A stretch of DNA of 64,000 bases from Pseudobdellovibrionaceae bacterium (GTDB taxonomy: Bacteria; Bdellovibrionota; Bdellovibrionia; Bdellovibrionales; Bdellovibrionaceae): the NCBI GenBank assembly GCA_044229295.1, contig JBGATJ010000007.1, forward strand, positions 13,141-77,140. Direction: 5' to 3'. How positions within the stretch are numbered: position 1 is the stretch's first letter; every line of letters begins with the position of its first letter. Under the pieces are notes generated by a model that worked only from the letters and a program-made list of their open reading frames with translations, was not told where the DNA came from and searched no databases. A program made the position numbers and the translations under genes. Shown here piece after piece: positions 10,013 through 63,915 of the stretch.

Positions 10013-10606
10013 TTAGAAACCCCAAATTTGATTTTGAATTTGGAGAGTTTCGGCCACACCTGGGTATCCATTTTCAAACCAAATCCACCAGCTTCCTATC
10101 ATGATCATGTGGCCTACAAAAATAAAAAAATGACTCCACATTTCAACTCGGTCAGAATGCCCAGTGAGATACCGATGCCAGTGCATTGCTTCATCAATGA
10201 TGCTGTAAAGAACACTTAGAAACAGCATCACAAATGTGGGGACTCGCATGAAGACGGGGTAAGTGTAAGCAAGGCACAGCATCATGGTGCTCGTAATTCC
10301 AGCAAAAATCGTGATGTGGTGAACAAGAGCCTCAGCTTTTTTTAAAACTTCTTTGTTGATGGTCCTGTGCCCGTTGGTGTCGAAGGCAATCGCGGTAGAA
10401 AAAACAAACACGCCAAGAGGAATGTTCCAGACATAGGCTGGATAGTTAACTCCGTGAAAAGCTCCCATCATCAAAAATGTCGTAATGACGCCAAAGAGTC
10501 CATACATCAAGCCAATCCATGCAGCGTAAACCACGCAATCAGTTTTATTAAACTCACAAATTCGCCTCACATAAATCACTGAGTCTTGCCAAAAAGAAGT
10601 GCTCAT
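10013..10606 (-). CDS. Integral membrane protein, His-rich, last gene of carotenoid cluster
   Basis: About 6 predicted TM segments. Several His pairs (VHHIT, HWHRY). 4-nt overlap with crtB. Family not recognised. Confidence 0.5.
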   Translation of the reverse strand: MSTSFWQDSVIYVRRICEFNKTDCVVYAAWIGLMYGLFGVITTFLMMGAFHGVNYPAYVWNIPLGVFVFSTAIAFDTNGHRTINKEVLKKAEALVHHITIFAGITSTMMLCLAYTYPVFMRVPTFVMLFLSVLYSIIDEAMHWHRYLTGHSDRVEMWSHFFIFVGHMIMIGSWWIWFENGYPGVAETLQIQNQIWGF

Positions 10607-11505: not shown

Positions 11506-11508
11506 TTG

Positions 11509-20160: not shown

Positions 20161-21011
20161 AGGGGGTGTCCCTGGCTTGAAGGAGCCACGATGCGCGTGG
20201 CCTTTTGATAAATCTTCCAGTTCTTTTCTAAAACTTCAAAGTCGGCCGCCGCTCGAGAGAAGCGTAGATTTTCTTTACTTCCAAGTGCTAAAAACCCACG
20301 GTGTACGAGAGACTGCGTGAAAAGATCAAACACTCTCTCCTGCAGAGGTTTGCTAAAATAGATCAGGACATTCCTACATAAAATGAGATTGGCTTCTGTG
20401 AAAACGGAATCAGTCACTAAGTTATGTTCTGAAAAAACAACGTTGTCGCGTAGAGAGCTATCAAAGCAAGCTTTCCCATACTCTGCTGTGTAGTAGTCTG
20501 AGGGACTAAAAAGGCCTCCGGACTCAGCATAATTCTTTGCAAATGTCTGCATGGAATCAAACCCATAGATCCCATCTCTTGCCATCTTCAAGGCGATAGG
20601 ATCAATGTCGGTTGCGTAGATCGTGGATCGCTCATAAATTCCTTCCTCTTTCAAAAGGATAGCGACGCTGTACACTTCTTCGCCGGTGCTACAGCCAGCC
20701 AGCCAAATTTTTAAAGACGGGTAGGTCCTAAGAACTGGAATCACCTTGAGCCTGAGGGCCTTGAAGAACGGCGGATCTCTAAATGGCTCAGTTGTAGAGA
20801 CTGTTAGGCGCGGAAGTATGCTAGAAAAAAAACTTGGATCCCGTAAAATATACTGGAGCAGAACCAGTGGGTCTTGAATATTGAACTTAGAGAGCAGCGA
20901 CTCAAGCCGTCTTGAAAGCGAAGCTTCCGCATACTGGCGAAAATCGTATCCGTGCTTAAGAAAAATCGCTTCGAGCAGGATCTTTTGCTCAACTGGGTCA
21001 ATTTCGATCAT
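20157..21011 (-). CDS. cheR: CheR-type protein-glutamate O-methyltransferase
   Basis: FFRDPPFF, SAM-binding IWLAGCSTGEEVYSVAILL, LCRNVLIYF. Start taken at the Met giving a 4-nt overlap with the upstream kinase. Confidence 0.85.
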   Translation of the reverse strand: MIEIDPVEQKILLEAIFLKHGYDFRQYAEASLSRRLESLLSKFNIQDPLVLLQYILRDPSFFSSILPRLTVSTTEPFRDPPFFKALRLKVIPVLRTYPSLKIWLAGCSTGEEVYSVAILLKEEGIYERSTIYATDIDPIALKMARDGIYGFDSMQTFAKNYAESGGLFSPSDYYTAEYGKACFDSSLRDNVVFSEHNLVTDSVFTEANLILCRNVLIYFSKPLQERVFDLFTQSLVHRGFLALGSKENLRFSRAAADFEVLEKNWKIYQKATRIVAPSSQGHPL

Positions 21012-24000: not shown

Positions 24001-24394
24001 CGATTCCATCATTCAGCAGAACCAATCTTTTTTTGAGCTGATCCTCGAGAATGCTAATGGACATTTGTTGCGCGGGGTTGTCTATCGTCAAAAGTTTGAC
24101 TTGATTGAGGTGAAGCCAAGCCTCGTTCACTCCGTCGCGGAAAGAGACAAGATGGTCGTCTGATCCTGAAAGATAATAGCCACGCACCGAAGATTCGGCA
24201 TCTTTAACGCCGGAAATGATTTGATCCACTTCAAGCATCACTTTGAAAGTGTGCTGAACCCAATCTTGCTGATGAGAGAACTTGTCAAAGTTGTAAAAGA
24301 GAAACCAGGTGTTGAAGGTAAAAAATGCCAGAGCGCCAAAGAAAAATGCGTTTAGCCCTTTGAGTTTTGAAGATGGCGTGGATAGTTCCATCAT
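21008..24394 (-). CDS. Large hybrid sensor kinase (CHASE3-like, TM, GAF-like, Glu/Gln coiled coil, HisKA, HATPase, three REC domains)
   Basis: VQHTFKV..RGYYLSG (CHASE3-like), H-box SHELRTPLN, GGTGLGLTISREL. Three receivers (ILIVEDDDAF, LLIVEDDQRQ, ALLVDDDLRN). Confidence 0.88.
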   Translation of the reverse strand: MMELSTPSSKLKGLNAFFFGALAFFTFNTWFLFYNFDKFSHQQDWVQHTFKVMLEVDQIISGVKDAESSVRGYYLSGSDDHLVSFRDGVNEAWLHLNQVKLLTIDNPAQQMSISILEDQLKKRLVLLNDGIDKYQRVLKSGKKPELDVAIGKASMDLLKNQVDVMKANEKRLLEERISSVKSNELYFYLALLSTALLTLLLVSYAFSMFRKNYLSTLEETKIKTHEAWKNSRIAEMSQMLAEQRSVDVISEKVLSFIGETTHVPAGSLYVKEEGRLRRSATYASMALTFIEGENQIPEFLSLDRGLLGEAFRAVAPVQIRAVPADYVPISSSLGSSQPRFLLFLPISFQKKNIAIIELACFEDPTENMLDFLKDLSDAIGIGISSAQFRERQQGLLEKTQQQAEELQAQQEELRVNNEELEEQTRALESQQHTLEQRNQQLEQTRRDVEMKASDLEKASQYKSEFLAKMSHELRTPLNSLLILSSLLFENKEGNLTDQQRTFAKSIQDSGNDLLNLINDILDLSKIEARKLSLRIETFNLSSVLSHLRSTFEPQATEKKLKLTTLQESYPADFKMTSDRMRLEQILRNFVSNALKFTESGEVKLEARPATDPAYIQFIVTDTGIGIPLEKRDLIFNAFEQADGSISRRFGGTGLGLTISRELAQLFGGSIRVESEPGQGSKFILEVPTQLQQAPLENLPPARIPDIHTQQKTDVESFAPNLRLAENVLKDVSTGEKTILIVEDDDAFRISVAEAARSYGFRALEAGDGEVALEILKRHSPSAILLDVKLPGLSGMGLLESIKNIPHLRHIPVHIISGLDYQHNALKMGAIGYLAKPVNIGEVRSVLARIETMISQKVKKLLIVEDDQRQQEALKHLVSGPDLEIHLAKTGQNAFEMIQKQTFDCIILDLSLPDVTGIELLDRLNSVSISLPPVVIYTGKELSPHEEEKLRHYSDSIIIKGAKSPDRLLDEVNLFLHRVESLLPDEKKHMLLEMRTKEKVFDGKTALLVDDDLRNVFALTSALEGKGFAVRVARNGIEALDALKEFSDIDIILMDLMMPKMDGLECMRHIRKMDFYDKTPIIALTAKAMKGDYEKCIEAGANDYLPKPINLINLISVMKVWLNPPGLFL

Positions 24395-40736: not shown

Positions 40737-42659
40737 GTGATTTTTAGAAAGCGCCTCCAAATCCTTAAAAAGCTTTTTTCTAAGCCGCCCAACCCCGTTG
40801 GGCTTAATGCTGTTCTCATTCAGTTTTCTCGAAATGCCGAATTGCCTGAGCGGATGGATCTTTTTCGCCAGCTTCTCGTTTGGCTTATGGAAAATGGCAG
40901 TGACCAGGTTGAGACAAGATTTCGGTATTTTTTTAAAGCTCTTGAAAATCAACCGGAATGGGAAAAGGGTTTGTCGACCTCGCTTAATCAAGTTCTTAGG
41001 GACTGTAGATCCTTTCGGCTCTTCACAGAAGTGGGAGTTAAGATTGAACATGGCCTTTGGGGGGACATTGCAGGACGACTGCTTGCAAAAATCCTGACTC
41101 CAGCAAGTCGGCACGACTCTGCTCAGATTTTTTCGGAGAGTTTCGTCACTCCAGATGCCCGTGAGGCGCTGGACTCCTTGTCGCCGGCCGCAGTTGAAAA
41201 AATCTGCGAGTGGTTTCAAAAAAATCTGGGCCATGAAAATAAAGAAAAGCTCGTTGTTGAAAGAAAAGAGGCGATGTACCTGCTGGCTGCGCACGTGGCG
41301 CACTACGGTCTTAGCGCACCAGTGCAGCGTCGAGTGGCTCGGCCTAACGAAGTCTCAACGTCTCCGTATTTTTTGCTGGTAGAATCCATTCGTGAGTTGG
41401 ATTCGGTTCGCGGTCTTGAAGTCCTCGACCTCTGCCAAAAAGAAATCGAATCTGTCTACGATCACTTAGATCAAAGTGGTGTAAGCGTTGACGTCGTCAA
41501 TCGCCTAGAGACTATCGAGGCTTTGCTACAAAGGCTGAAGATCTTGCTCGAGTTACAGACTCCGCAACCTGATGTTGTCCATCGATTTTTGCGCGAAGTA
41601 GTCAAGGCTCAAGAAAGCAGTCGTTCGGTTTTTAATTATTTGGCCAGGCATTTTTATCTTTTGTCGCGCAAGGTAGTTGAACGTAACGGTCACTCGGGGG
41701 AGCATTACATCGCCCATACAAAAGCAGAGTTACGGTCGATGTTCTGGTCTGCCTTGGGCGGTGGATGTATCGTTGTTTTGATGACGATATTTAAAGTGCT
41801 TTTCATTCACACGCATCCAGCTCCGGTGTTTTTAGGTTTAGGAGTTTGGATTATCTACTCTGCGGGCTTCCTTGCAATGCAGTTTAGTGGGACAACTCTG
41901 GCCACTAAGATCCCGTCTTTTACAGCATCTCGGTTAGCTGGTTTTTTAAAGTCTCGTCACTTTGATCAATCCGGTTTCACTAACGAAGTTAAATCCACTC
42001 TCAAATCTCAAGTTTTAGCGCTTATTGGAAACCTCTGTGGAGTTATTCCTTTCGCTCTCGTGATTGACCAAGCTTTACGATATGGTTTTGGCGGAGGATT
42101 GATGGATGTTGCCTACGCCGATCACGTCATCGATAATTTGCATCCTATTTTTAGCCTCGCGGTTCTTTTAGGAGCACTTACGGGATTTCAGCTTTGGCTT
42201 TCGTCCTTAGTTGGTGGGTGGTTTGAAAATTGGGTTGTGTACAACCGGATTCCAGAAACCGTGGCCGAGCACTATCGTTTGCGCCAAGTTCTTGGAGAAG
42301 CTTCGGCGGTCAAATTTTCAAATTGGATTTTGGATCAGTCGTCGGGGCTTGCCACCAACGTGTCGTTGGGATTTCTCTTTGGATTCTGTCCCGTGATAGG
42401 GGACCTATTTGGTCTTAATTTTAATGGCAATCACGTGACAATATCGACAGCCTCATCGCTTTTTGCTTTTTCGGCTCTGAACTTTCAGGTTGATGGATGG
42501 ACCGTCGCTGCCACGAGCACAGGACTTTTGCTTATTGGCCTTATGAATTTTGTGGTGAGCTTTTTATTAGCTCTATTTGTCGCAGCCAGAGCCCGTCGAA
42601 TGCAGTTCTGGCGAATGCTTCATTATTTGCGACAGAGTTTTGGCAGGCGAGGGGCTTAG
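40737..42659 (+). CDS. Large membrane protein, possibly of the PF10136 'site-specific recombinase' family
   Basis: Soluble helical N-half (about 330 aa) plus a multi-TM C-half. The overall architecture and N-terminal RMDLFRQLLVWL.. resemble the recalled family. Not verifiable here. Confidence 0.35.
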   Translation: MIFRKRLQILKKLFSKPPNPVGLNAVLIQFSRNAELPERMDLFRQLLVWLMENGSDQVETRFRYFFKALENQPEWEKGLSTSLNQVLRDCRSFRLFTEVGVKIEHGLWGDIAGRLLAKILTPASRHDSAQIFSESFVTPDAREALDSLSPAAVEKICEWFQKNLGHENKEKLVVERKEAMYLLAAHVAHYGLSAPVQRRVARPNEVSTSPYFLLVESIRELDSVRGLEVLDLCQKEIESVYDHLDQSGVSVDVVNRLETIEALLQRLKILLELQTPQPDVVHRFLREVVKAQESSRSVFNYLARHFYLLSRKVVERNGHSGEHYIAHTKAELRSMFWSALGGGCIVVLMTIFKVLFIHTHPAPVFLGLGVWIIYSAGFLAMQFSGTTLATKIPSFTASRLAGFLKSRHFDQSGFTNEVKSTLKSQVLALIGNLCGVIPFALVIDQALRYGFGGGLMDVAYADHVIDNLHPIFSLAVLLGALTGFQLWLSSLVGGWFENWVVYNRIPETVAEHYRLRQVLGEASAVKFSNWILDQSSGLATNVSLGFLFGFCPVIGDLFGLNFNGNHVTISTASSLFAFSALNFQVDGWTVAATSTGLLLIGLMNFVVSFLLALFVAARARRMQFWRMLHYLRQSFGRRGA

Positions 42660-45295: not shown

Positions 45296-45443
45296 AGGAT
45301 CTCCTTTTTTATTTGGACGTCAAATGGAACATGCTGAGTTTTAACAGGCAAACTTTTTCTGGATGTGATTTGCTCAACCTGTTGCAAAATTCTGTAGAAG
45401 AAGTGATTTGACAGTTTCAAAATACTGCGATCTCCTTGAAAAT

Positions 45444-46880
45444 ATGCGTGTTTTATCTCTCGTTGTCGCACTTGGTTTTTCGATTTTGGCTCATGCCGAA
45501 CCTTGGCTGGCAAATCGCTTTGCGCAGAACTGCACAGCGTGCCATTCGCCGGGGCGCCCCGATGTCAGTTTCTCGCAGAAGCGTTGCACGGCAACTTGCC
45601 AAGGTTGTCATATCAGTCCCAATGGTGGTGGGCTACGAGGAGCCCATGGGAAGTGGAATGAGTCGAAATGGCTTCGCTCTTTTTATTTAGAAACCTGGCG
45701 GCCTAATTCCAAAACTCCAGCGCCGTTAGCGGAGCAAAAATTCAACGAAGAAAATTTGAAACGTTTCATCGGAAACCCCAATCAAGAAAAAGAAATGATT
45801 GAGCGTGGAATACCGATGAAAGGGAGTGACAGTCAGACTGAAGATCCCAAATATATCGCGCCGATGATGACGGAAAATGATCCGCAGAAATTCATGTATC
45901 GAGTTCCAGCGGGAGATCCCCTTCGCCAAAAACAAGAGCAATGGTTTACTGCTGGTGCAGACCTTCGCTACTTTCTGTTAAATACAAGTGGAAAGACCGA
46001 GGTCAATGGGGAGAGCACTCCCGCTGAATCCAAACAGTACAGCGCGTTTATGGGGCTTGATATTGGAGTTGAGGTTTCGCCAGTTCAGCCAGTGCACTTC
46101 GTGTTTGAGCACCGCTATGGCAATCCACCATCGCACGACCATTGGGATCAGCTCTTCACTGGGCAGAGTGCGGTTAAATCAGCTTACGTGTTAGTCGATG
46201 ATCTTCCGTACAACTCTTGGATTCAATCCGGTCTCTATCGTCCTTTGTTTGGTCACTCAAATCCTGATCACAACACTCTCCTCAACCAGCTCACTGGATT
46301 CACACAATTTGTAACCTACAACACGACCTCGATTGGGACCGCGCCGGGGGCACCTTTTTTCAATTTGCATCTCATCAGCAAAAAGTCTGGGATTGAAGAT
46401 GAGCCCGGAAAAGCTGCGGGCACCGCCTTTAACCTTGGGGCTAGGTTTGTGTCCTATGGTCTCTCTTTGATGATTTCAAATTGGAACACGACAGCTGATA
46501 CTGCCACTCAAAGCATCACTAGAAAAATGACGGCTTTTGATCTTGGTACGGCGTTAGGAAGGTATGTTGGAAATATCAATCTTACGCGGGTTGAGCTGCG
46601 CGTGCCCGATCAGTCTCAGGACAAGGGCACGATCGTTACGCTTGAGAATAAGTACCGTTTCTGGCGAGAAAGTTACATGGTTTTAAATTACGCCTTTGCA
46701 AATACAACCCGTCTTCTGAAAGAGGGGACATCAAACCAACTAGGTTATGGGATAAGAACGTTTTGGCTCTCTGGCCTTGAAACAGAAGTTCTTATGACGA
46801 CAACCAAAGAAAAAGTTGAGGCGACCCAAACGACGGTCACCGACAACTATGCTCAGCTCCAGGCGCATTTCTTTTTTTAG
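45444..46880 (+). CDS. Exported protein with two N-terminal CxxCH motifs fused to a predicted outer-membrane beta-barrel (Cyc2-like architecture)
   Basis: Signal peptide MRVLSLVVALGFSILAHA. CTACH (45531-45545) and CQGCH (45597-45611). Long strand-like region ending ...AQLQAHFFF. Confidence 0.6.
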   Translation: MRVLSLVVALGFSILAHAEPWLANRFAQNCTACHSPGRPDVSFSQKRCTATCQGCHISPNGGGLRGAHGKWNESKWLRSFYLETWRPNSKTPAPLAEQKFNEENLKRFIGNPNQEKEMIERGIPMKGSDSQTEDPKYIAPMMTENDPQKFMYRVPAGDPLRQKQEQWFTAGADLRYFLLNTSGKTEVNGESTPAESKQYSAFMGLDIGVEVSPVQPVHFVFEHRYGNPPSHDHWDQLFTGQSAVKSAYVLVDDLPYNSWIQSGLYRPLFGHSNPDHNTLLNQLTGFTQFVTYNTTSIGTAPGAPFFNLHLISKKSGIEDEPGKAAGTAFNLGARFVSYGLSLMISNWNTTADTATQSITRKMTAFDLGTALGRYVGNINLTRVELRVPDQSQDKGTIVTLENKYRFWRESYMVLNYAFANTTRLLKEGTSNQLGYGIRTFWLSGLETEVLMTTTKEKVEATQTTVTDNYAQLQAHFFF

Positions 46881-47755
46881 TGGACGTCCGCAAAACCAAC
46901 CGTAATCACATCGGCTTCTGATTGAGCCTCGATGCCAAGAACAATCGGCGAGAGCGAAGTTCCCGGAGCTGACACTGGAGCTACTGTGGCGGAGATGCCT
47001 GACCACTGATCCCCTTGGATGACGTCTTCAACGCCAAGACCGCTACCACTTGCCGGCCGCACATAAATATGAAGGCCTCTGAGAGAGATCGGTCTGATGT
47101 TACCGTAAATTCGGGGATTGAAGACTTTGTACTCATTTTGAACTGAATTAAACGACTGGATGCTAATCTCAAGGGTTGCGCCTGCAAGGCTTGCAACCGC
47201 AGGTGCAACCTCAGAAAGGTTGAATTTGAGAGTTGCAACTTGCGTGGTTGTGATGAGTGGTAGAGGGTTTACAATAGCAACAGGGGAGCTGACATAGGGA
47301 GGATTCGGGAGCGTGGCTCCTGCAATAGAGCCCCCAGTTGAGCCACCTTGCTGAACTTCGATCAATGCCCACTGGGTAAGGAGATTTTGCATGACAGCTT
47401 CGTTGCTAGGATCTGCGCAGATGGGATCTCCGCAGTGATTGTTACTCACGTACGACGCATAAATCGATGCTACTGGATTTGCAAAGTCAACAAATGGGCG
47501 TGCAAAATCATAGGCCACTTTGACATCTTCGTTAGCCCATTTAGGGCTCACTCGGTTGGCGTGACATTTTACGCAGCCGTGGGTTTGTCCGAAGGCGTAG
47601 ACAGTTGTAGCAAAACCTTCGATCGACGACTCTGATGTTTCAGTAGCTGTGATCGTGGAGCTTTCCTTAGATTCAACGACATGCCCTTTTTCGCAGGCTG
47701 CAAGTCCCAGGGCGATCATCGACAGTAATAAAATTCGATTCAATGATTTCATCAT
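46877..47755 (-). CDS. Lipoprotein with single CxxCH motif
   Basis: Lipobox LGLAAC. CVKCH at nt 47561-47575. ATGA overlap with the upstream gene. Confidence 0.55.
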   Translation of the reverse strand: MMKSLNRILLLSMIALGLAACEKGHVVESKESSTITATETSESSIEGFATTVYAFGQTHGCVKCHANRVSPKWANEDVKVAYDFARPFVDFANPVASIYASYVSNNHCGDPICADPSNEAVMQNLLTQWALIEVQQGGSTGGSIAGATLPNPPYVSSPVAIVNPLPLITTTQVATLKFNLSEVAPAVASLAGATLEISIQSFNSVQNEYKVFNPRIYGNIRPISLRGLHIYVRPASGSGLGVEDVIQGDQWSGISATVAPVSAPGTSLSPIVLGIEAQSEADVITVGFADVH

Positions 47756-49221
47756 ATCACCAACACATCTGCGAGGTTTTGAATGTTCATCGCGGTCACG
47801 GCCGCTGGAGGTACTGTGCCAGCATTAATCCATTTGAGAGCCGAAAGATAAAGACCAGAGACCGCTTCAGCTGAAGACTTGATATTAGATGCTGTTTTTG
47901 CATTTCCATTGTTAGAAGTGATCGTGCCCGTCATTAGTGCTGTAGGCCCAACTCCAGCTGGGTTAAAAAATACAATCAATCCTGCGTTGTAAGAACCACC
48001 GGCATCACCGCGAGCAACTGGCGCGTTCACTGTGGTTGCGACGCCTCCGATGGTTGCGGCCACCGACTGAACTCCCGAAGCAATAGCTTGACCATTTGAA
48101 AAGTAAAGGAAGGCACCAGGCGCGTTGGCTGCGTAACAGGCCGCCAAGAACATAACGATGGCGCGAGCCTCCTCGATATCCGCAGGCGCGATGACAGTTT
48201 GTGGATTTTGTCCATGATAGTCTCTGCCGCCAAGTTGAAGAACAACACCACCGATCACACCCATGGCTGATTGGTAGTAAGAGGCAAGCAGCGATTGCTC
48301 AGCAGGTGTTAGACTTGCTACAGTAAATAAAGATGTCAGTGGAGCAAGCCCTGTGGCTGTAAATAGAGAGCTACCAAAAGTAGGATCAACAAGCGCAGAG
48401 TTCCCGTAAAGCGCGCATCCCGCAGATGTTGTTAAATTAGCAGCCCCGTTTCGAGAGGCATTGCCAAATGTGTTGGTCATTGCTGCGGCAATATCGATAG
48501 CGGCGTTAGATGCATCCGTCATAGACTGTGCAGTGACAAGTCCAGTGGCACTTGGCGAAACTGAGAATAATGTTGAAAGCGTTGCAGGCGTGAGTCCATT
48601 TTTGGAGATGGAGCTAGCAGCCATCCCTGTGGCCCAACTTGCCATTTTGTTAGAGACAGAAATACGAAGGTCTTTACCGAGTTGAGTGTTTTTAAAAGCT
48701 GCCGCTCCTCCAAGGAGACCCGTGTTGGAGCCAGCCCCGTCGTCAGAATTAAAAGGACCGCGATGCCCGCCGCCGCTGATTTTGCTTAAAACTTTAGTCT
48801 GCCAATCGGCAGATCCGCCCACCCAACCTGGAGGTCCTTGCATGATCGTTGCGCCAAAAGGACTCGTTGTATCGATCACAAGATTGGGCCCTAGTTTTAA
48901 AAGATTGGTTCCAGAAATTCCATAGTTTGCGGCAATCGTCGGGTTCATCATGGCAGCTTGATCTTCGCCAATAAAACGAGCTCCCATGGTGGGGCCGCCT
49001 TCTGCAAAGATTTGAGCGATGGCGCCTGTCGCCCTCACGGTAGGAGGGCAGGTGAGCGCGGCTTGAGCCTCTCTTGTTAAAAATGGCAACAGTGCGGTTG
49101 GAAGAGTCGTAGATATAAATCCAGTTGCAAGCCCACGAGCCAATAAATCCCGGCGAGACAGGCCTACATGATCTGCCTTATCAATAAGATCTTTCCAATT
49201 TTGTTTTGACTTGTATGTCAT
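47752..49221 (-). CDS. Tat-signal exported protein, Gly/Ala/Thr-rich, family not recognised
   Basis: Twin-arginine motif SRRDLLARGLATG followed by an h-region and AQA. GGRDYHGQN is faintly reminiscent of DUF1501-type proteins. Confidence 0.6.
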   Translation of the reverse strand: MTYKSKQNWKDLIDKADHVGLSRRDLLARGLATGFISTTLPTALLPFLTREAQAALTCPPTVRATGAIAQIFAEGGPTMGARFIGEDQAAMMNPTIAANYGISGTNLLKLGPNLVIDTTSPFGATIMQGPPGWVGGSADWQTKVLSKISGGGHRGPFNSDDGAGSNTGLLGGAAAFKNTQLGKDLRISVSNKMASWATGMAASSISKNGLTPATLSTLFSVSPSATGLVTAQSMTDASNAAIDIAAAMTNTFGNASRNGAANLTTSAGCALYGNSALVDPTFGSSLFTATGLAPLTSLFTVASLTPAEQSLLASYYQSAMGVIGGVVLQLGGRDYHGQNPQTVIAPADIEEARAIVMFLAACYAANAPGAFLYFSNGQAIASGVQSVAATIGGVATTVNAPVARGDAGGSYNAGLIVFFNPAGVGPTALMTGTITSNNGNAKTASNIKSSAEAVSGLYLSALKWINAGTVPPAAVTAMNIQNLADVLVI

Positions 49222-49230
49222 ACCTCTCCC

Positions 49231-49881
49231 CTAAAGACCCAACATGCTTGCACCTGCCGTGTTGGCGGCAATGCAAACTGCCATAAATGCCATTTTACTT
49301 GTGTTTGTTCCTACCGCGGCCTGTGCTTGAACTAAGTTTGTGAGTACGGTGCTGACAGCGGCACTGTCAGGTCCTTGTGAAGCTAAGCCGGCTGTGTGTT
49401 TGTCTAGCATCCGTAGGCCTGCAACAACCAGCCGAACCTGATTTGCCGAAATGGTTGCAGCTGAATCAATGCCGTAAACGGTTTGCATGATGGGTGTCTT
49501 TCCGGTTGTTAAGTCTGAGCAGGCGGCGTAAGCAAGTAACTCCACCTGATCAAAACCTGCGGCATTAAGAATGTTGGTTCTTGCTGGTAAGTTAGTTTTT
49601 ACAAGACCTAAAGTTTTCTCAAAATTTCCTCTTGTTGCTAGCGCATTTTTTTCTAGACCATTTTCAAGACGAGCGACAATTGCAGGGCCGGTAGGAACTA
49701 AAACCCCTTGTTGGTTTGGACCACCAGTCACCGGAGTTGCTGGTCCCGCTTGTGAAATGTTATTTCCGGGAATGGAGCTTGCCGCAACAGCGACTCCAAT
49801 TTCGCCGTGAGGCGGAGCTTCAATTTGATGTTCTGAACAGGCGCAAAGAGCGAGGCTCGTCACAAATAAGACATATTTCAT
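49231..49881 (-). CDS. Putative lipoprotein
   Basis: MKYVLFVTSLALCAC N-terminus. ATGA overlap with the upstream gene. Confidence 0.5.
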   Translation of the reverse strand: MKYVLFVTSLALCACSEHQIEAPPHGEIGVAVAASSIPGNNISQAGPATPVTGGPNQQGVLVPTGPAIVARLENGLEKNALATRGNFEKTLGLVKTNLPARTNILNAAGFDQVELLAYAACSDLTTGKTPIMQTVYGIDSAATISANQVRLVVAGLRMLDKHTAGLASQGPDSAAVSTVLTNLVQAQAAVGTNTSKMAFMAVCIAANTAGASMLGL

Positions 49882-51164
49882 AGGCACCCCGGACTCGCAG
49901 CAACAGCTGCTACGATCGTTCTTAGATCATCGGTGCCAGCAGGCTCAGCCCACGGATTAGCGCTGGCTGCGATGGCCGTGATCTCAGCGGCAGAGAAATT
50001 TCCAAGAGGGCAAAGTTCTCCAATCACACGTTGAGTAAAAAACTGATAGACGATCCAAGACTGGGTGATGGCGTAGCCGAGCTGTTGAAGACCTTGACCT
50101 TGAGTTGGACCTTTCCAACCCATGGCTGAGAGAACGCCCGTTTCGCTCCAAGTTCGCGAGACATCCCAACTTTGAGCCGCGTCCACATCAACGCTACTGG
50201 GATTGCATACAGGAGTTGGAGTTCTAGTAAGGTTGCATGTGAGGTTACGATTGCGTTGACCTGGATCTGATCCCAAAGATTTCATCGTGTTCACAGTAGG
50301 GTTTGCAATGTACACAAGACCCTTGCCAGTGAAATCAAAAACGTTTGCGACTGTGGCATATCCATGTCCCACCGAAGTCATCCCACCACCGTGACATGCG
50401 ATACAAGCTGTTTGGTTTTGCCCATGGAAAAAATTAGGGTCATACTGAGGAACAAATTTGGGGACCTGATCAACAGATGCGGCGGGTGATGCCACGTCAA
50501 TGATTGCAAACCCCGTTGAAATTTGCCAAATGCCTTCGATCATGCGCAGATTGGTTCCTGCGGTGGCCCCATACATCGCAAATGAATTGTCTCCAGGCCT
50601 ATCACTTAATGTTGCATATCCGCCAACCACCGAAACTGGTAAGTAGATGCCGTTGCTGTCGAGCTGACCGCCAAGGCGAACGAGTTGAGTCCAATCGACA
50701 TTCGCAAGTTCATCTCCAGAAAGATCAGCTGCGTGAACTTGAGCTCCCGTCGAAGGGGAAATCACCATGTAAGTTGCATTTTCTGACCAGATATTGCTGA
50801 TTCGAGCAGGGGCGCCTGCGCCCACAAAGTGCGCGATTAAAAAGGCTGTGGCATCGTTGTCTTTCATCCCACTGGCATCTAGACCTGGATTTTGCATTTG
50901 AAGAGCCAGCCTGCGCGCCGTAGAGTTTGCAAAATATTTGCTGTTGGCAGCAACGAGAGCCGCGCCTCTGATATCTCCTGAAGCCACAAGGTTGACCATT
51001 TGAGTAAATAGTGGATCTGACGAGGGCATTAAGCCCCCAGTGATTGCATTTTTAAGACGAAGCGCTTTGACGGTTGAAGCAACATCTATGGCTTGAGCAA
51101 GGGGTGTGGCCACCATTGTCCAAACCAAAGCGAGCATAGCTCCGTAGTTCATATTCTTTGACAT
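49878..51164 (-). CDS. Exported protein with single CxxCH motif
   Basis: Signal peptide ..VATPLAQA. CIACH at nt 50391-50405. First gene of the four-gene operon. Confidence 0.55.
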   Translation of the reverse strand: MSKNMNYGAMLALVWTMVATPLAQAIDVASTVKALRLKNAITGGLMPSSDPLFTQMVNLVASGDIRGAALVAANSKYFANSTARRLALQMQNPGLDASGMKDNDATAFLIAHFVGAGAPARISNIWSENATYMVISPSTGAQVHAADLSGDELANVDWTQLVRLGGQLDSNGIYLPVSVVGGYATLSDRPGDNSFAMYGATAGTNLRMIEGIWQISTGFAIIDVASPAASVDQVPKFVPQYDPNFFHGQNQTACIACHGGGMTSVGHGYATVANVFDFTGKGLVYIANPTVNTMKSLGSDPGQRNRNLTCNLTRTPTPVCNPSSVDVDAAQSWDVSRTWSETGVLSAMGWKGPTQGQGLQQLGYAITQSWIVYQFFTQRVIGELCPLGNFSAAEITAIAASANPWAEPAGTDDLRTIVAAVAASPGCL

Positions 51165-51358: not shown

Positions 51359-51892
51359 ATGAAGAAAAATCTGAATCTTTTGATAGCGAGCTTATTGGTA
51401 TTTTCCTCTCCGTCGTTTGGAGCTTCACCAAAAGTTCGAGCTGGGACTTTTGCACCTGGAATTAGTCTTGGTTTTAAAGGTGCAGGATCGATCAGTTTAA
51501 AGTATTGGCTTCAGGAAAAGATCGCTTTTGATATCAACGTTGAGTACTTCAAGGGACCTTTTTCTGTGATCTATGCCGATGCCTATTATCACTTCCCTGA
51601 GGTTTTCGCGAAAAGCTCAGGGCACTTGCGAGAAACTGCGCTTTACGTTGGCGCTGGACTTGGCGCGGGCGCCTGGCATCGCGAAGACAATTGCGCAAGG
51701 TTTGGTTGCTCATGGAATGAGGGCACCAAGGGTTCTGGAGATGGGTACTTTCTAAGAACCGTCGGAGGAGCTGAGTGGTATCCGCCAAGAACAGAACTTG
51801 GTATATTTATGGAGCTTGCGCCATCGTACCTGCTCTACCCGAATACAAAAATCATTTATGATCTTTTAGCGGGCGCTCGCCTTTACTGGTAG
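51359..51892 (+). CDS. Small outer-membrane beta-barrel-like protein
   Basis: Signal peptide MKKNLNLLIASLLVFSSPSFGA. Alternating strands. Aromatic C-terminus (ARLYW). Confidence 0.5.
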   Translation: MKKNLNLLIASLLVFSSPSFGASPKVRAGTFAPGISLGFKGAGSISLKYWLQEKIAFDINVEYFKGPFSVIYADAYYHFPEVFAKSSGHLRETALYVGAGLGAGAWHREDNCARFGCSWNEGTKGSGDGYFLRTVGGAEWYPPRTELGIFMELAPSYLLYPNTKIIYDLLAGARLYW

Positions 51893-53458
51893 GTGCTTCA
51901 GCGAAGATTCGGGATGAGTGAGCGCGCGGTAAACGCCGTTGGTCCAGCCGAAGCCGTCTTGCGTGGGATACTCGCCGCCGCCAGACTTTAGTTTGGTATC
52001 GATGACGTTGTATTTTTCCATCATCTTGCCTGTGGACTTGTAGACTTGAAGATTAATAGCAAGCCACTGATCACGTATTTTTTTAGCAAGTGGCTCTATG
52101 TGATATTGCTTGAGACCAGCGTAAGCCATCCACTGATGTGGAGCCCAGCCATTAGGGGCATCCCATTGTTGACCTGAGGTTCGAAGAGTCGTTACAAGGC
52201 CGCCGGGTTTTAGAAGCTTTTCTTGAATCACGGAGCTAGCCCTGCGAGCTTGATTGTCTGTGGCGAGTCCGACAAAAAGAGGCACCACCGTTGCGATCGT
52301 GAGTTCTGGAGTGCGGGTTTTATTTTTCCAATGATAGTCGTAAAAAGCCCCGGCCTTTTCATCCCAGAGATAGCGGTGAATCAGATTTTTTCTCACGTCA
52401 GCCTGCTTTTGAAAACTCTCAGCCTGGCTCTTGTTGCCAGCGATCAGAGAGAGCTCAGAAATTTTCATCTCCAGATAGTAAAGAAGAGAATTTAAATCTA
52501 CGGGCAGAAGCCTTGTCACTTGAATAGAGGCAAGCTCGGTTGGATCTTTGAACCAGCGCGTGCTGTAATCCCAGCCAGACTCAGCGCCGGCTCTGAGTTC
52601 GCGGTAAGTTTCGGCGCGACTTCTCCCGTAGAGTTTTTCCGCCTTCTCTGCAATGCGAACATCTTCTTTATAAGCTTCGGGCCTCGGATCGTTGCGATCA
52701 TCCCAATATCGATTTAGAACTCCGCCATCCACGCTCACAGCGCGCTCGCCTTTCATCCAAAACTCATGCTCTATGAGAAGAGCTGGGAGAAATTTCACGG
52801 CCGATGGAGCTCCAAAACGAGATTGCCAAAGTGCAACCATCAAAGCAAAAAATGGAGGCTGGGAGCGGGACCTGTAGTAATCGCGGTTGCCGTTAGGAAT
52901 GTGATGAAGAGTGGTAAGAAGGTGCGAAAAGTTTTCGAGCATGTTTTTAAAAAGGTCATCTTTTTGATCCTCTAGTAATCCAAGCTCTGTGAAATAAGAA
53001 TCCCAGTAATAAATCTCACGAAAACGGCCCCCAGGAACTATATAAGAAAATGGCAGGGGAATCAGCGAAGAGTAAGGACTTACGTTTTTATCAGGTGGTC
53101 TTGTGAGATGGTCCCAAAGTGTAGTGAAGTGCCGGTCTAGATCCTCAGAGGTGTTTGTTTGGTAATTGTCCTGAGGGCTCGCAGGGGCTTCAAAATTTTG
53201 AGACACAAACTGCCGTAGGTCTGCTGGCTTTTCTTTTTGAAACGAAGCCATAATTTCCACGGGACTGCGTTTAGGCGTCATATCAACGAAATATTTGGAA
53301 TCAGGAAAAACAGGTGCAAGCTGCACAGCCGTGAAAAGTTCTCCGTAGAGCTGTGAGGGATCTTGATCATCACGAGGGGACTCAAGACGGTGCGAAGGCG
53401 GAGCGGTGCAGCTGACAATCGAAAAACAGACAAACGGAATTAAAAGGAAACTTCGCAA
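51866..53458 (-). CDS. treA: Periplasmic trehalase (GH37)
   Basis: PGGRFREIYYWDSYF, SGWDYSTRW, QWDAPNGWAPHQW signature blocks. N-terminal signal. Confidence 0.9.
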   Translation of the reverse strand: MRSFLLIPFVCFSIVSCTAPPSHRLESPRDDQDPSQLYGELFTAVQLAPVFPDSKYFVDMTPKRSPVEIMASFQKEKPADLRQFVSQNFEAPASPQDNYQTNTSEDLDRHFTTLWDHLTRPPDKNVSPYSSLIPLPFSYIVPGGRFREIYYWDSYFTELGLLEDQKDDLFKNMLENFSHLLTTLHHIPNGNRDYYRSRSQPPFFALMVALWQSRFGAPSAVKFLPALLIEHEFWMKGERAVSVDGGVLNRYWDDRNDPRPEAYKEDVRIAEKAEKLYGRSRAETYRELRAGAESGWDYSTRWFKDPTELASIQVTRLLPVDLNSLLYYLEMKISELSLIAGNKSQAESFQKQADVRKNLIHRYLWDEKAGAFYDYHWKNKTRTPELTIATVVPLFVGLATDNQARRASSVIQEKLLKPGGLVTTLRTSGQQWDAPNGWAPHQWMAYAGLKQYHIEPLAKKIRDQWLAINLQVYKSTGKMMEKYNVIDTKLKSGGGEYPTQDGFGWTNGVYRALTHPESSLKHLPVKASAR

Positions 53459-59720: not shown

Positions 59721-60638
59721 ATGTTAGAGAGCATGCAGATGCTATTGAAAATACTCAGTTTTTTTGTAGTATATGGGGTCGTTCAAGGGGCCCCAAAGCT
59801 GAGGGAGCCAGCCTTTTTTGCCCAGGCCATTCGGCGTGACCCCATCGCCATAGAAAAAAAGCGATTTGTTCAGTTGAAAACTCATTATGATGAAAGCGCC
59901 GTTGAAAACTGTACGGCGTTTCCTGTAGCCAATCGTGGGGGCCATTTTTACTTCGCCTCGGCAAGGCATTGTGCTTCCTATGCGTTTACGAGTTTGTGTC
60001 GTGAGCAAAAAATTGAGCTCACGACTTTAGCTCATGGTTACCGCGGAATTTGTATCCAAACCATCTTTGATCCCGAGGACCACGATTTTGTTATTTTCGA
60101 AGCCCAGTTCCCTTCGGTTCCAGCGAATTCTATTCGCGAAGAACTCCTTCCTGCGCGGTTGAGCGGCCGATGGATGTTTGAAGATCCCCTTGTCATGTAT
60201 GGCTTTCCGAGTGACCCAGAAAGAAATAGGCAAGCCACGACAACGAACAACTGTTGGGTTTTAGATCCTGCAAAAACCCGTGGAAGAGACGTTCAGTTCT
60301 TAGATTCTAAAGAGCGTAGCGAGATAACTCGGTTCTTTCAGGACAGAGATGATACCAAAGACGCCTACCTTCGCGGGATTTTTCAGAGAGCTGCTGCGCT
60401 CTCTCAGTTTCTGACTGACACCTATGGAGAGTACAACTGCTCAGTTTATTCTGGTAATAGTGGCGGTCCGATTTTTAAAGAGCGTACCGATGAAGTGATT
60501 GGTCTTCCCGCGAAATATCTCCCAAATGTGTATCGGTATTTCCCGCAGACCTTGTACACGACCTTTGTTTCCTTAAGCCCCATTCTTCTTCAATACCACG
60601 AGGTTTTTGAAACCTTGGGAATTATTACCGTTCTTTAA
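59721..60638 (+). CDS. Secreted trypsin-like serine protease
   Basis: Signal peptide. His SARHC, Asp HDFVIFEA, Ser SGNSGGPIF. Confidence 0.75.
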   Translation: MLESMQMLLKILSFFVVYGVVQGAPKLREPAFFAQAIRRDPIAIEKKRFVQLKTHYDESAVENCTAFPVANRGGHFYFASARHCASYAFTSLCREQKIELTTLAHGYRGICIQTIFDPEDHDFVIFEAQFPSVPANSIREELLPARLSGRWMFEDPLVMYGFPSDPERNRQATTTNNCWVLDPAKTRGRDVQFLDSKERSEITRFFQDRDDTKDAYLRGIFQRAAALSQFLTDTYGEYNCSVYSGNSGGPIFKERTDEVIGLPAKYLPNVYRYFPQTLYTTFVSLSPILLQYHEVFETLGIITVL

Positions 60639-61441
60639 ATCCAAAACCAATCGATGTTAAGGCAGGCGATTTCTTCTGGAGGAGAGTCCTTTACTGTTTT
60701 GTTCGCGCTTTTTAAAAAGTCGGCGAGGACCTCTCGAAGGGTTTCAAAATCCTTTCGCGAGATTGAGAACTGTCCCGAATACATCAATTCTTGTTGGGTC
60801 ACTGTTTCGGTTTTTTGCATGGCCTTGAGGCGCCAGTTCGTGTGGTGTTTGATAGAGTGTGGAGACTCCTGAGACACCCAAGTGCTTTGGGTTCCCATGA
60901 GGTAACGCGATTTTTTTTCAACAACGAGTTTAGATTGGATGAGAAATTGGATGATTTCTACAGCTCTCGCTCTGGAGATCGAAAAGCGGGTGGAGATATC
61001 CTCTAGGCTCACACCTTCTTTTTTTATCGATGAAAAAAGGTGAATCGCGGAATAAATCCAGCTTGAATAAAAAACCGCGCGGTCCTCATCGGAAAGAACA
61101 CGATCGTGGGAAACTCTATGAGCAAGTTTGAGAGCCTCAGATTTCAGACGAGCTAGCTTTTTCTCCAAGTGGCCTCTGAGGTTTTCGCTGCCGGCGCGCT
61201 CTTTTCTGACGAGAAGGTCGAAATACTCAGTTTCAAGAAGACCATGTCCTAAATAGGTGCTCAGCTCGAAAGTCTGCTCTTCGCTGGGGTTTCTTAATCC
61301 CGCTAGCACCTGGCTCAGCATTGTGCTATTCACCCTCAAGTGTGTCGCTATGCGGGTGAGTTCTCCACGGCCTCCGTTTGGCAGGTGTTGGATGTAGTGG
61401 CGCAGGTATTTGCGGTAGTCCGAAAACTGAAAAAGGCTCAT
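60635..61441 (-). CDS. TIGR02147-like HTH protein (paralog 1)
   Basis: N-terminal YRKYLRHYIQHLPNGGRGELTRIATHLRVNSTMLSQVL, FYSSWIYSA, HHTNWRLKA, C-terminal NIDWF. About 40 percent identical by eye to 63112..63915. Confidence 0.65.
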   Translation of the reverse strand: MSLFQFSDYRKYLRHYIQHLPNGGRGELTRIATHLRVNSTMLSQVLAGLRNPSEEQTFELSTYLGHGLLETEYFDLLVRKERAGSENLRGHLEKKLARLKSEALKLAHRVSHDRVLSDEDRAVFYSSWIYSAIHLFSSIKKEGVSLEDISTRFSISRARAVEIIQFLIQSKLVVEKKSRYLMGTQSTWVSQESPHSIKHHTNWRLKAMQKTETVTQQELMYSGQFSISRKDFETLREVLADFLKSANKTVKDSPPEEIACLNIDWFWI

Positions 61442-62559: not shown

Positions 62560-63123
62560 ATGTCGTCTTTCAGAATATTTCTTGGAGTTTTAGTTTCTAT
62601 TTTAGCTGGCTGTGCATCTCCAACGTACAAGGATTTTAAGACTGAGAAAGTGAAACCTACCGAAGGCATAGCTATTGGCACAGTTAAAATCCGCTACAAT
62701 GGTAAAGACATGAGCAAAGGCTGCGCCGTTTGCTTGACTTCAGTGAATGGCCCTTGCCAGAGTCTTGCTGAAAACGGCCTCGTATTTTTGAGTGCGCCAA
62801 AAGGCGAATCTTCTTTACGCAGGATTGTTTGCAGCGATGTCTCGGCTCAACATTACAACATACAAAATGTGAATTTCACGATCCACGACGGAGTTACCTA
62901 TTTTGGGAACGTTGATATCGACTGGGCTAACGCTGGGGGGTTTAAGTCCTCTGACATGTTCGGAGCTATTGGCGCCATTGTCTCAGAGTCCAAAAATGAC
63001 GGAACCATCAAAGTGCGTGTCAGCGATCGGAATATGAAGGACGTCGTAGAGGCCTACGAACAACAGACGGGTCAAAAAACAAAACCGGTAAAAAACCTTC
63101 TTGTGGTGCCTTCAAAGCTCTAG
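62560..63123 (+). CDS. Putative lipoprotein
   Basis: MSSFRIFLGVLVSILAGC lipobox behind GGAGAA. No recognised family. Confidence 0.5.
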   Translation: MSSFRIFLGVLVSILAGCASPTYKDFKTEKVKPTEGIAIGTVKIRYNGKDMSKGCAVCLTSVNGPCQSLAENGLVFLSAPKGESSLRRIVCSDVSAQHYNIQNVNFTIHDGVTYFGNVDIDWANAGGFKSSDMFGAIGAIVSESKNDGTIKVRVSDRNMKDVVEAYEQQTGQKTKPVKNLLVVPSKL

Positions 63124-63915
63124 CCAATCGATATTGAAGCAATAAAAACTCTCAGGATCTGTGTCTTTGACCGTGCCCCCGAGTTCGCTAATAAGTTTAA
63201 CAAGCTTTTGGCGGAAGGCCGCCGCGTCCTTTTGAGAAATCGACAGCGGCGCCGTATAGACAAGTTCATGGCTTGAAATCACATCAAAGTTTTCTATAGC
63301 CTTGAGTCTCCAGTTGGTGTGATGGCGGGCAATCAACGGAGATGTTGATTCCAGATGTGTGCGTTGGTGACCAGGTTTGAATTTTCCGCGCTCACTGATG
63401 CAGAGATTTCGAGACACAAGAAATTCCATGGCATTGCTGACCATGGCCTTGGGCAAGTCTAAGTGCTTTGCAAGGTCCTCAATGTTCTGATGGGAGTTGA
63501 GCGACGTGAGCACGCGAAGAGCGCTGTAAATCCAAGAAGAGTAAAAAATGCTTTTATCTACATCACTGAGTTGGGTGTCTTTCGCGAGATGGTGAGAAAG
63601 CTCGAGGCCTTCCTCGCGTTTCCGTTTGAGTTGCTTTTTCAAGTGAGACTTAAGTTTGTCTGTGGCCGCACGGTCAAGCTGAACCAGAAGCAAAAAGTAT
63701 TCGGTTTCGAGCTCTGAGAGGCCAAGGTAATCAGCTAAAGCCATAGCTTGATCCATACTCAGCGATTTATTTCCTCGAAAGATCTGACTGACAAGGGTGG
63801 TATGAACGTTCAAAGCAACCGCCATGCGCCTGTACTCGCCGCGTCCTCCATTGGGCCTATGTTCAAGGTGGGCTGCTATAAATGATCTGAAGTCGCGAAA
63901 CTCATAAATTTTCAT
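63112..63915 (-). CDS. TIGR02147-like HTH protein (paralog 2)
   Basis: FRSFIAAHLEHRPNGGRGEYRRMAVALNVHTTLVSQIF, FYSSWIYSA, HHTNWRLKA, NIDWL. Confidence 0.65.
   Translation of the reverse strand: MKIYEFRDFRSFIAAHLEHRPNGGRGEYRRMAVALNVHTTLVSQIFRGNKSLSMDQAMALADYLGLSELETEYFLLLVQLDRAATDKLKSHLKKQLKRKREEGLELSHHLAKDTQLSDVDKSIFYSSWIYSALRVLTSLNSHQNIEDLAKHLDLPKAMVSNAMEFLVSRNLCISERGKFKPGHQRTHLESTSPLIARHHTNWRLKAIENFDVISSHELVYTAPLSISQKDAAAFRQKLVKLISELGGTVKDTDPESFYCFNIDWLEL

Follow-up and report, generated by a model that had tools for sequence, protein, structure and literature searches.

A predicted dihaem cytochrome-porin fusion of Bdellovibrionota that is built like Cyc2 without belonging to the Cyc2 family

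Results

A module with two haem motifs is fused to a porin-like barrel

We analysed a stretch of 64,000 nucleotides (nt) from a Pseudobdellovibrionaceae bacterium (assembly GCA_044229295.1, contig JBGATJ010000007.1, positions 13,141 to 77,140 of the forward strand), hereafter the window, and focused on a single open reading frame (ORF) within it. The encoded protein is exported and joins a conserved module with two c-type haem attachment motifs (CxxCH) to a 16-stranded porin barrel, and its family is genomically associated with periplasmic c-type cytochromes. An initial annotation, made from the DNA letters and a list of ORFs, had described the gene as a diheme, Cyc2-like cytochrome-porin. The fused dihaem architecture was supported by our analysis, and the ORF coordinates and signal peptide given at that time are borne out by the sequence and the ORF list. 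All features are collected in Table 1, with positions counted from the first letter of the window and with A1 denoting an alignment of 48 homologues of 34-65% identity.

Table 1 Features of the dihaem cytochrome-porin gene and of the operon that converges on it.
Feature	Position	Strand	Description
Dihaem cytochrome-porin fusion, whole ORF	45444..46880	+	478 amino acids (aa) from ATG 45444
Sec signal peptide, aa 1-18	45444..45497	+	predicted cleavage between AHA and EPW; AxA site, read from sequence
Haem module, 62 aa (aa 19-80)	45498..45683	+	consensus EPWLSNRFAQNCAACHAPGR...RRCTLSCQGCHVNPNGGGLRNxYGKWNQxRWLRSF
CxxCH motif 1, C30-T-A-C33-H34	45531..45545	+	invariant in A1
Extra Cys48, four residues before motif 2 (CxxxCxxCH)	45585..45587	+	invariant in A1; sole unpaired Cys of the module
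CxxCH motif 2, C52-Q-G-C55-H56	45597..45611	+	invariant in A1; followed by invariant P59 and G61-G62-G63
Variable linker/pre-barrel segment, aa 81-167	45684..45944	+	short helices; ends at invariant D158-P159
Predicted 16-stranded beta-barrel, ~310 aa (aa 168-477)	45945..46874	+	AlphaFold2 model and Foldseek
Longest loop, aa 266-291, between strands 5 and 6 (porin L3 position)	46239..46316	+	consensus RPMFGxYxPDHTSL; near-invariant His276
C-terminal strand with aromatic beta-signal	46848..46877	+	Q-x-H-x-[FY]-[FY] in family C-termini (here QAHFFF)
Neighbour 1, 292-aa lipoprotein, last gene of the operon	46877..47755	-	one CxxCH (CVKCH); no Pfam match
Neighbour 2, 489-aa Tat protein	47752..49221	-	twin-arginine signal SRRDLLARG; invariant D-Y-H motif; no Pfam family
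Neighbour 3, 218-aa lipoprotein	49231..49887	-	no recognisable domain (ORF list, Pfam scan)
Neighbour 4, 428-aa secreted protein	49878..51164	-	one CxxCH (CIACH); distant PSCyt3/PSD2 (DUF1588/DUF1585) type

The public gene call for this protein (P0001, 100% identical) is 490 aa long and starts at a TTG at 45408, 36 nt before the ATG at 45444. The 12 extra residues (MTVSKYCDLLEN) are unconserved among homologues and form no plausible part of a signal; the ATG gives the better signal peptide. From this start, the N-terminus reads MRVLSLVVALGFSILAHA followed by EPW, a canonical Sec signal, and every A1 member has a hydrophobic leader that ends directly before an invariant (E)PW. At the other end, the frame closes with a TAG stop at 46878-46880 after ...QAHFFF, which confirms the C-terminal Phe that had been reported.

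Two haem motifs and an additional cysteine are conserved across the family

The haem module is the best-conserved region of the protein: its mean top-residue frequency is 0.81, whereas the barrel reaches 0.49 and the linker 0.36. CTACH and CQGCH lie exactly where they had been placed before. Motif counts in the 188 near-full-length homologues (430 aa or more) showed that both motifs are kept across the family far beyond chance: 184 of the 188 carry exactly two CxxCH, and the remaining four are gene calls that are truncated at the N-terminus or odd. Motif 1 and motif 2 lie 22 aa apart in 180 of these 184 sequences. The earlier inventory of two CxxCH was correct and had overlooked an invariant fifth cysteine, Cys48, whose position is occupied by Cys in 183 of the 184 homologues. 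In A1, the invariant residues of the module comprise C30, C33, H34, C48, C52, C55 and H56 together with P20, W21 and G61-G63. The family consensus is (A)EPW[LIM][AS][NST]R[FY]AQN-CxxCH upstream of motif 1 and H-[AS]-P-G-R-x-N downstream of it; P39 of the window protein is unconserved.

To characterize the module by profile, the 48 A1 members were scanned with Pfam. Cytochrome_CBB3 was matched by 41 members (best E-value 2.7e-7), MtrC/F domain II/IV by 21, cytochrome c7 by 16 and Paired_CXXCH_1 by five. The non-cytochrome matches were marginal hits to Porin_4 and DUF321, in two members each, plus scattered matches in single members; beyond these, no other kind of family recurred in the scan. 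The window protein alone passed no Pfam or NCBIfam cut-off, and its sub-threshold Pfam matches were Cytochrome_CBB3 (0.015) and Paired_CXXCH_1 (0.038). Searches of Protein Data Bank (PDB) sequences with the single sequence and with the family profile gave no significant match, and the non-significant profile matches were to the haem sites of cytochrome c6 and MauG, with Maelstrom as the sole exception. Since family members match c-type cytochrome profiles, predominantly Cytochrome_CBB3, covalent attachment of haem is predicted and, at the level of sequence, well supported.

We also considered that the Cys/His cluster might be haem-free and form a plug, metal-binding or stabilised by disulfides, in an ordinary porin. 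That the window protein passes no family cut-off would be in line with such a plug. However, the His of CxxCH is as invariant as the Cys residues in both motifs, and the odd number of cysteines (five) disfavours a purely disulfide role. The profile matches of the family are mostly to c-type cytochromes, with the non-cytochrome ones marginal and confined to one or two members each, and the neighbouring genes are enriched in cytochromes, as described below. We therefore give this explanation next to no weight.

Candidate sixth ligands of the two haems are Cys48, the N-terminal amine, Tyr68 and, from the barrel, His276 or His475. Cys48 might act as a distal haem ligand or form a cross-link. The mature x-Pro N-terminus presumably recalls that of cytochrome f, whose N-terminal amine ligates haem, and we take this resemblance as a lead.

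The C-terminal domain is modelled as a 16-stranded porin barrel

AlphaFold2 modelling on A1 gave a structure with a predicted local distance difference test score (pLDDT) of 88.9 and a predicted template modelling score of 0.86. It contains 16 strands in aa 168-477, connected by periplasmic turns of 2-5 residues. We compared the model to the PDB with Foldseek, and the top matches were only 16-stranded porins, with E-values from 2e-13 to 1e-9. Vibrio cholerae OmpT ranked first (2e-13), followed by Neisseria PorB, Omp32, OprP (2o4v, 1.8e-10) and OmpF, at template modelling scores (target) of 0.6-0.73 and sequence identities of 8-12%. No porin Pfam family was matched by the window protein, and Porin_4 appeared at 0.041 in 2 of the 48 members. 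The membrane-barrel fold that had been proposed is thus upheld by the model and its porin matches. Its extent had been overestimated: instead of about 420 aa of strand-like sequence, the barrel covers about 310 aa and is preceded by the 62-aa haem module and the linker at aa 81-167. This linker shows indels, length variation and low conservation in A1 and is mostly helical or coil, with helices assigned by DSSP within aa 102-165 of the model.

The conserved barrel residues D173, R175, D206, E222, R224, R334, W347, R405, Y411 and H475 lie on the less hydrophobic face of the strands, which presumably faces the lumen. Because nearly all conserved strand residues are on this presumed lumen face, the barrel interior is apparently under constraint. 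In the model, the loop at the L3 position may constrict the pore or contribute to haem ligation. The C-termini of the family end in H-x-[FY]-[FY] (HLFF, HLYF, HFFF and similar), and H475 is kept in at least 90% of members. The protein resembles the general porins OmpT, PorB, Omp32, OprP and OmpF in strand number, fold, short periplasmic turns, a longest loop at L3 and an aromatic C-terminus. It differs from them in having an N-terminal extension of about 150 aa that bears two haem sites, and in its very short extracellular loops L5-L8.

A periplasmic dihaem enzyme anchored in the outer membrane, peroxidase- or thiosulfate-dehydrogenase-like, would give another role to these parts: the haems would be ligated by His/Cys via Cys48, and the barrel would be only an anchor. 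SoxA, TsdA and DsrJ have catalytic haems with His/Cys ligation. An invariant unpaired cysteine beside motif 2, together with the lack of a conserved distal His or Met, fits this explanation, as do weak CCP_MauG matches in a few members. However, a 16-stranded barrel whose presumed lumen face is conserved far exceeds an anchor, and 60 residues are very little for a catalytic dihaem site. The protein also has no significant similarity to dihaem peroxidases or TsdA, and we consider an anchored enzyme highly improbable.

The family is unnamed and confined to Bdellovibrionota

A word-indexed search returned 280 homologues, all of them unnamed or 'hypothetical', and those with a recorded source come from metagenome-assembled genomes (MAGs) of Bdellovibrionales or Oligoflexus. 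An exhaustive profile search of 1.84 billion protein representatives gave 516 matches at E<=1e-3, including 159 at E<=1e-30 and 239 with E-values between 1e-10 and 1e-3, the range in which a bridge to Cyc2 would be found if one existed. The best 150 of the 516 matches are all family members or fragments, and the family comprises about 200 non-redundant sequences. In a scan of one genome per species we detected 103 relatives and kept 80 loci, nearly all in MAGs of Bdellovibrionota (Bdellovibrionales, Pseudobdellovibrionaceae, Oligoflexales, Pseudobacteriovorax) from lakes, oceans, groundwater, glacier streams and sediments. Some genomes encode two or three paralogues.

Four contigs (L013, L048, L063 and L080) belong to MAGs labelled Streptomyces griseus, Lindowbacteria, Zetaproteobacteria and Chlamydiales, and the Zetaproteobacteria contig is 3.2 kb long. 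These labels are probably binning or labelling errors, because the distribution of the family is otherwise strictly Bdellovibrionota. On the basis of these searches, the proteins appear to form a separate, unnamed and uncharacterised family restricted to Bdellovibrionota. Literature searches yielded no account of either a dihaem cytochrome-porin or Cyc2-like genes in this phylum.

The protein shares the layout of Cyc2 and lacks its family signatures

Cyc2 is the Fe(II) oxidase of Acidithiobacillus, Zetaproteobacteria, Gallionellaceae and others, and it provides the experimental precedent for a fused cytochrome-porin that performs redox chemistry at the outer membrane (PMC8406198). Keffer et al. 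define it by a signal peptide, one CxxCH with AxPxFAR[Q/K][T/Y] upstream (an inclusion criterion of that study) and PxL downstream, four residues after CxxCH, a 16-stranded OprO/OprP-like barrel and a length of at least 365 aa (PMC8406198). The protein in the window, at 478 aa, has the same general layout: it carries a signal peptide, its N-terminal haem site lies about 11 residues downstream of the mature x-Pro, and the same chain continues into a 16-stranded barrel of the OprP/OmpF kind. In both families the cytochrome part is the most conserved region, and both have a hydrophobic C-terminal beta-signal, which is aromatic in this family and -E-A-L-M/F in the Cyc2 set.

The differences are as follows. 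Cyc2 has one CxxCH, whereas this family has two plus the extra Cys. The stretch PxFAR[QK][TY] of Cyc2 has PW[LIM][AS]NR[FY] as its counterpart here, and PxL is found only in Cyc2. An extra linker of about 85 aa brings this family to about 480 aa, compared to about 405 aa for Cyc2. Finally, this family occurs only in Bdellovibrionota and has no established link to iron oxidation.

For a direct comparison, we rebuilt a Cyc2 query from the mass-spectrometry peptides of Cyc2(PV-1) (Keffer et al., Table S1) and used an alignment (A2) of 32 zetaproteobacterial, cluster-1-type Cyc2 sequences, each with EAIPAFARQTGAACLSCHFQTFPAL and one CxxCH. Comparison of A1 with A2 by hhalign gave a probability of 17%, over 48 columns of C-terminal strands only. 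The N-terminal sub-profiles gave 7.6%, with PWLANRFAQNCTACHSP set ungapped against PAFARQTGAACLSCHFQ. Both PxFAR[Q/K][T/Y] and PxL are absent from the family consensus, and with the Cyc2 stretch IPAFARQTGAA-CxxCH the family shares only A, P and the spacing. Because no profile comparison with this zetaproteobacterial Cyc2 set was significant and the shared layout alone remains, we rejected membership in the Cyc2 family. The earlier term Cyc2-like therefore holds for the layout (signal peptide, N-terminal haem motif and 16-stranded barrel) and fails for family membership, by motifs, haem count and hhalign. As far as sequence comparison can tell, the protein is an architectural analogue, built like Cyc2 and no member of its family.

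A rare 360-aa relative with a single haem site (P0210, L092 8001-9083) has nearly no linker. Its site, AEPWFVNRFDEQCAHCHVNPNGGGIR, reads as the upstream half of motif 1 joined to the downstream half of motif 2. A coxB(+cyt c)-coxA-coxC-coxD-SCO1 operon lies 1 kb downstream of the gene and has the same orientation, an arrangement which we take to resemble the Acidithiobacillus rus operon. Comparison of P0210 with Cyc2 gave no significant match.

These data bear on whether the protein could be a true, divergent Cyc2, that is, an outer-membrane Fe(II) oxidase with a second haem that would pass electrons from dissolved Fe2+ to a terminal oxidase. In favour of it, the protein has the layout and size class of Cyc2 and, like Cyc2, a cytochrome part that is the most conserved region, and the fold search also returned OprP, the porin used to model Cyc2. 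Haem site 1 aligns ungapped with that of Cyc2, at an equal distance from x-Pro to the first Cys (PWLANRFAQNCTACH vs PAFARQTGAACLSCH), and the monohaem relative is found close to a coxBACD-SCO1 operon. However, the family consensus lacks both Cyc2 motifs, and the hhalign probabilities against the 32 Cyc2 sequences are low, with the larger of them confined to C-terminal strands. An oxidase operon lies within 10 kb at only 1 of 83 dihaem loci (L045), and with monohaem L092 as the one further locus near a cox operon we rejected a terminal-oxidase link as a general feature. The hosts, found in ordinary oxic lakes, oceans and soils, are not known to oxidise iron. Taken together, a divergent Cyc2 is very unlikely.

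The MtrAB/PioAB/MtoAB systems share the proposed job, in that c-type haems associate with an outer-membrane barrel to move electrons across or at the outer membrane. They are two-protein complexes, whereas here a single chain would provide two haems and 16 strands. In the MtrCAB structure, a decahaem cytochrome sits inside a 26-strand barrel. The MtrC/F Pfam matches in the family are sub-threshold and confined to the haem motifs, and neither the window protein nor the 48 members matched MtrB_PioB. A large barrel with a separate multihaem partner threaded through it, as in complexes of the MtrB/PioB type, does not fit the 16 modelled strands, the fused haem module and the lack of MtrB_PioB matches.

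A convergent operon encodes PSCyt3/PSD2-like and Tat-exported proteins

The cytochrome-porin gene meets a four-gene operon on the opposite strand (46877-51164), with overlapping stop codons at 46877-46880. The two transcription units are convergent, tail-to-tail, and the head-to-head orientation given in the initial annotation was wrong. The two further CxxCH proteins that it had reported in this operon are present, as the CVKCH lipoprotein and the CIACH protein. The family of the former (fam34) follows the cytochrome-porin gene also in L005, L019 and L026.

The second gene encodes a protein with a signal for twin-arginine translocation (Tat), and its family comprises about 110 unnamed Bdellovibrionota proteins, 14 of which were scanned with Pfam and gave no match. 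No DUF1552 or DUF1501 model was hit. The AlphaFold2 model of the protein has a pLDDT of 81.8, and its Foldseek matches, all of them weak, fall within the alkaline-phosphatase/sulfatase superfamily (best E-value 0.022). In an alignment of the family of neighbour 4 (A4), C254, C257 and H258 are invariant. PSD2/DUF1585 is matched by 6 of 13 members (best E-value 3.2e-6) and PSCyt3/DUF1588 by 2 of 13. The window copies of the operon proteins themselves gave no significant Pfam match.

The operon may be akin to the PSCyt/PSD modules of planctomycete type, which pair proteins of DUF1588/DUF1585 type with DUF1552-like Tat-signal partners: its CxxCH protein belongs to a family with PSD2/PSCyt3 matches and is followed by a protein with a Tat signal. 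It differs from them in that the window's own copies lack a significant Pfam match and the Tat partner matches neither DUF1552 nor DUF1501. PSCyt1 is matched above cut-off by lipoproteins associated with the operon in L039. In bacteria of the Planctomycetes-Verrucomicrobia-Chlamydiae (PVC) group, PSCyt modules are linked by genomic context to the use of carbohydrates and sulfated polysaccharides, and their function is unknown (PMC5615132). In the literature on PSCyt modules we found no report of an outer-membrane cytochrome-porin partner.

Cytochrome genes are enriched beside family members

We called ORFs in 83 loci of the cytochrome-porin family and clustered them. The operon, or an expanded version of it that adds PSCyt1 dihaem lipoproteins and an FG-GAP protein, adjoins the cytochrome-porin gene in 14 of the 83 loci. 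These 14 loci fall into 6 of the 14 sequence clusters, and their cytochrome-porins have a median identity of 37% to each other. Five arrangements were observed: convergent, divergent, same-strand upstream, same-strand downstream, and with two genes in between (L087). In L039 and L051, the cytochrome-porin gene is the last same-strand gene after the operon, at gaps of 51 nt and 136 nt, respectively.

Next to this operon linkage, we observed a marked enrichment of cytochrome genes in general. CxxCH proteins are encoded by 27 of 153 immediate neighbours (17.6%), compared to 4 of 364 genes (1.1%) at a distance of at least seven genes, an enrichment of about 16-fold (Fisher p = 9e-12), and the neighbours come from 16 families. 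A CxxCH ORF is found within two genes of the cytochrome-porin in 31 of 83 loci. This strengthens the proposal that the protein is an electron conduit, because c-type cytochrome genes are strongly enriched beside family members.

The recurrence of the operon can also be read in another way. The protein might be a substrate-specific import channel that serves the PSCyt3/PSD2-like and Tat system, with haems that dock, sense or gate and form no transmembrane conduit. The operon adjacency is recurrent, phylogenetically dispersed and includes same-strand arrangements. The sole structural resemblance of the Tat protein is to alkaline-phosphatase/sulfatase-type hydrolases, and the context of PSCyt modules in PVC bacteria ties them to carbohydrate and sulfated-polysaccharide use (PMC5615132). 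Conserved charged residues on the presumed lumen face are also what a selective channel would have. However, the operon is present at only 17% of the loci, the assignment to the alkaline-phosphatase fold is not significant (E-value >=0.02), and the enrichment of cytochrome neighbours reaches many other families. Two strictly conserved haem sites would be a costly decoration of such a channel. We regard an import channel as rather unlikely.

Several other neighbours did not recur across the family. An iron-transport link was rejected: an Fe3+-type ATP-binding cassette (ABC) transporter occurs at one locus (L007/L008) and does not recur in the clustering. In L007/L008 (11644-15413), genes for an SBP_bac_1/6/8/11 binding protein, a double-length permease and an ATPase come after the gene of the nearest homologue from outside the window, which has 64% identity, and share its strand. 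Methionine-salvage, radical S-adenosylmethionine and methyltransferase neighbours (fam1, 5, 6, 8 and 13) were likewise rejected, as clade synteny kept only among close loci.

Two further neighbours are described here in their own right. In L039 (11450-12784) and L087 (11587-12936), a same-strand protein of 444-449 aa is encoded directly downstream. This protein begins with a Trm112p-like zinc ribbon, contains a methyltransferase domain of the CARME/class I kind and is weakly PqqD-like at its C-terminus. In Oligoflexales/Pseudobacteriovorax loci, a lipoprotein of about 130-165 aa adjoins the cytochrome-porin gene (L052 4528-4965; gene +1 in L063, L067, L076 and L078). The L052 copy has CAGSSCH (CxxxxCH) and no CxxCH, which may be an atypical haem site.

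Other genes in the window

The initial annotation had seen no respiratory genes nearby, and our Pfam scan showed none in the rest of the window; it encodes, among others, carotenoid genes, a hybrid kinase with CHASE3, a trehalase and an M1 peptidase. A phytoene/squalene synthase (SQS_PSY, 1.6e-57) adjoins a phytoene-desaturase-like flavin amine oxidase (3.4e-49) at 10603-13053 (-), a pair of carotenoid type in a genome that looks like that of a predator. The hybrid sensor kinase (21008-24394, -) is 1128 aa long, with CHASE3-GAF-HisKA-HATPase_c and three receiver domains, and has three same-strand ORFs downstream. At 40737-42659 (+) lies a 640-aa protein with a full-length match to Pfam SpecificRecomb (PF10136, 3.2e-135) and apparently several membrane-spanning segments. 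The trehalase, a secreted protein or lipoprotein (Pfam Trehalase, 1.7e-140), is encoded just past the cytochrome operon at 51866-53458 (-). Finally, two paralogues of about 268 aa (60635-61441, -, and 63112-63915, -) have near-identical N-termini (...F.DYR.YL....H.PNGGRGE..R.A), and the one that was scanned matched DUF4423 (2.7e-19).

Discussion

Our preferred reading, to which we assign a probability of roughly 0.55, is that the protein is a single-chain outer-membrane cytochrome-porin that forms the outer-membrane terminus of a short electron-transfer chain of cytochromes. The two haems would sit within the barrel or at its periplasmic mouth. They would relay electrons between c-type cytochromes, periplasmic or of lipoprotein type and very often encoded by adjacent genes, and a small redox-active solute that comes into the pore or is met at the cell surface. 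In the window, the candidate partners would be the products of the convergent operon, namely the PSCyt3/PSD2-like cytochrome, the Tat-exported protein that weakly resembles the alkaline-phosphatase superfamily, and the monohaem lipoprotein. The working mode would be like that of Cyc2, as a fused cytochrome-porin, with a two-haem relay as the difference.

Several observations weigh against this electron-transfer role. The operon is not within 10 kb in 69 of the 83 loci, and, conversely, among four Tat-protein loci on long contigs a cytochrome-porin gene lies within 10 kb in one and in none of the other three. No distal-ligand His or Met is conserved in aa 19-167 of A1. Confidence of the AlphaFold2 model drops below a pLDDT of 50 at the mature N-terminus (aa 12-25), although low values at this invariant stretch are to be expected if its fold needs the cofactor. 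There is weak evidence from the structural model that the Tat partner might be hydrolase-like, of the alkaline-phosphatase superfamily, rather than a redox enzyme. Finally, the hosts are aerobic predators and heterotrophs of ordinary oxic waters with no obvious need for extracellular electron transfer.

A more specific form of the electron-transfer reading is that of a minimal outer-membrane wire, in which one polypeptide with two haems would connect PSCyt-type periplasmic modules to the surface redox chemistry of predatory Bdellovibrionota, perhaps with unusual haem ligation via Cys48 or the N-terminal amine. We put this forward tentatively, as a proposal with a small chance of being correct. 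The surface chemistry in question may be assimilatory iron reduction or oxidation, or an oxidative attack on prey or the sensing of prey. If the wire reading is true, it connects PSCyt modules, first described in planctomycetes and of unknown function since, to surface redox chemistry.

Among proteins in which a cytochrome is fused directly to a porin, only Cyc2 is, to our knowledge, well studied, and its gene widely serves as a marker of microbial iron oxidation. The main interest of the present family is that it would be a second instance of a fused cytochrome-porin, with two haems, and a possible outer-membrane partner of PSCyt-type modules. If this holds true, a second and independent-looking family shows the fused design to be broader than one iron-oxidase lineage, in a phylum of aerobic predators not thought of as doing extracellular electron transfer. 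It also calls for caution, in that not every ORF with a haem motif and a porin should be called Cyc2. With about 50 kDa and two haems, the protein would offer a compact and tractable model of outer-membrane electron transfer. In conclusion, its recurrent linkage to PSCyt3/PSD2-like and Tat operons would provide a first handle on the function of these widespread modules.

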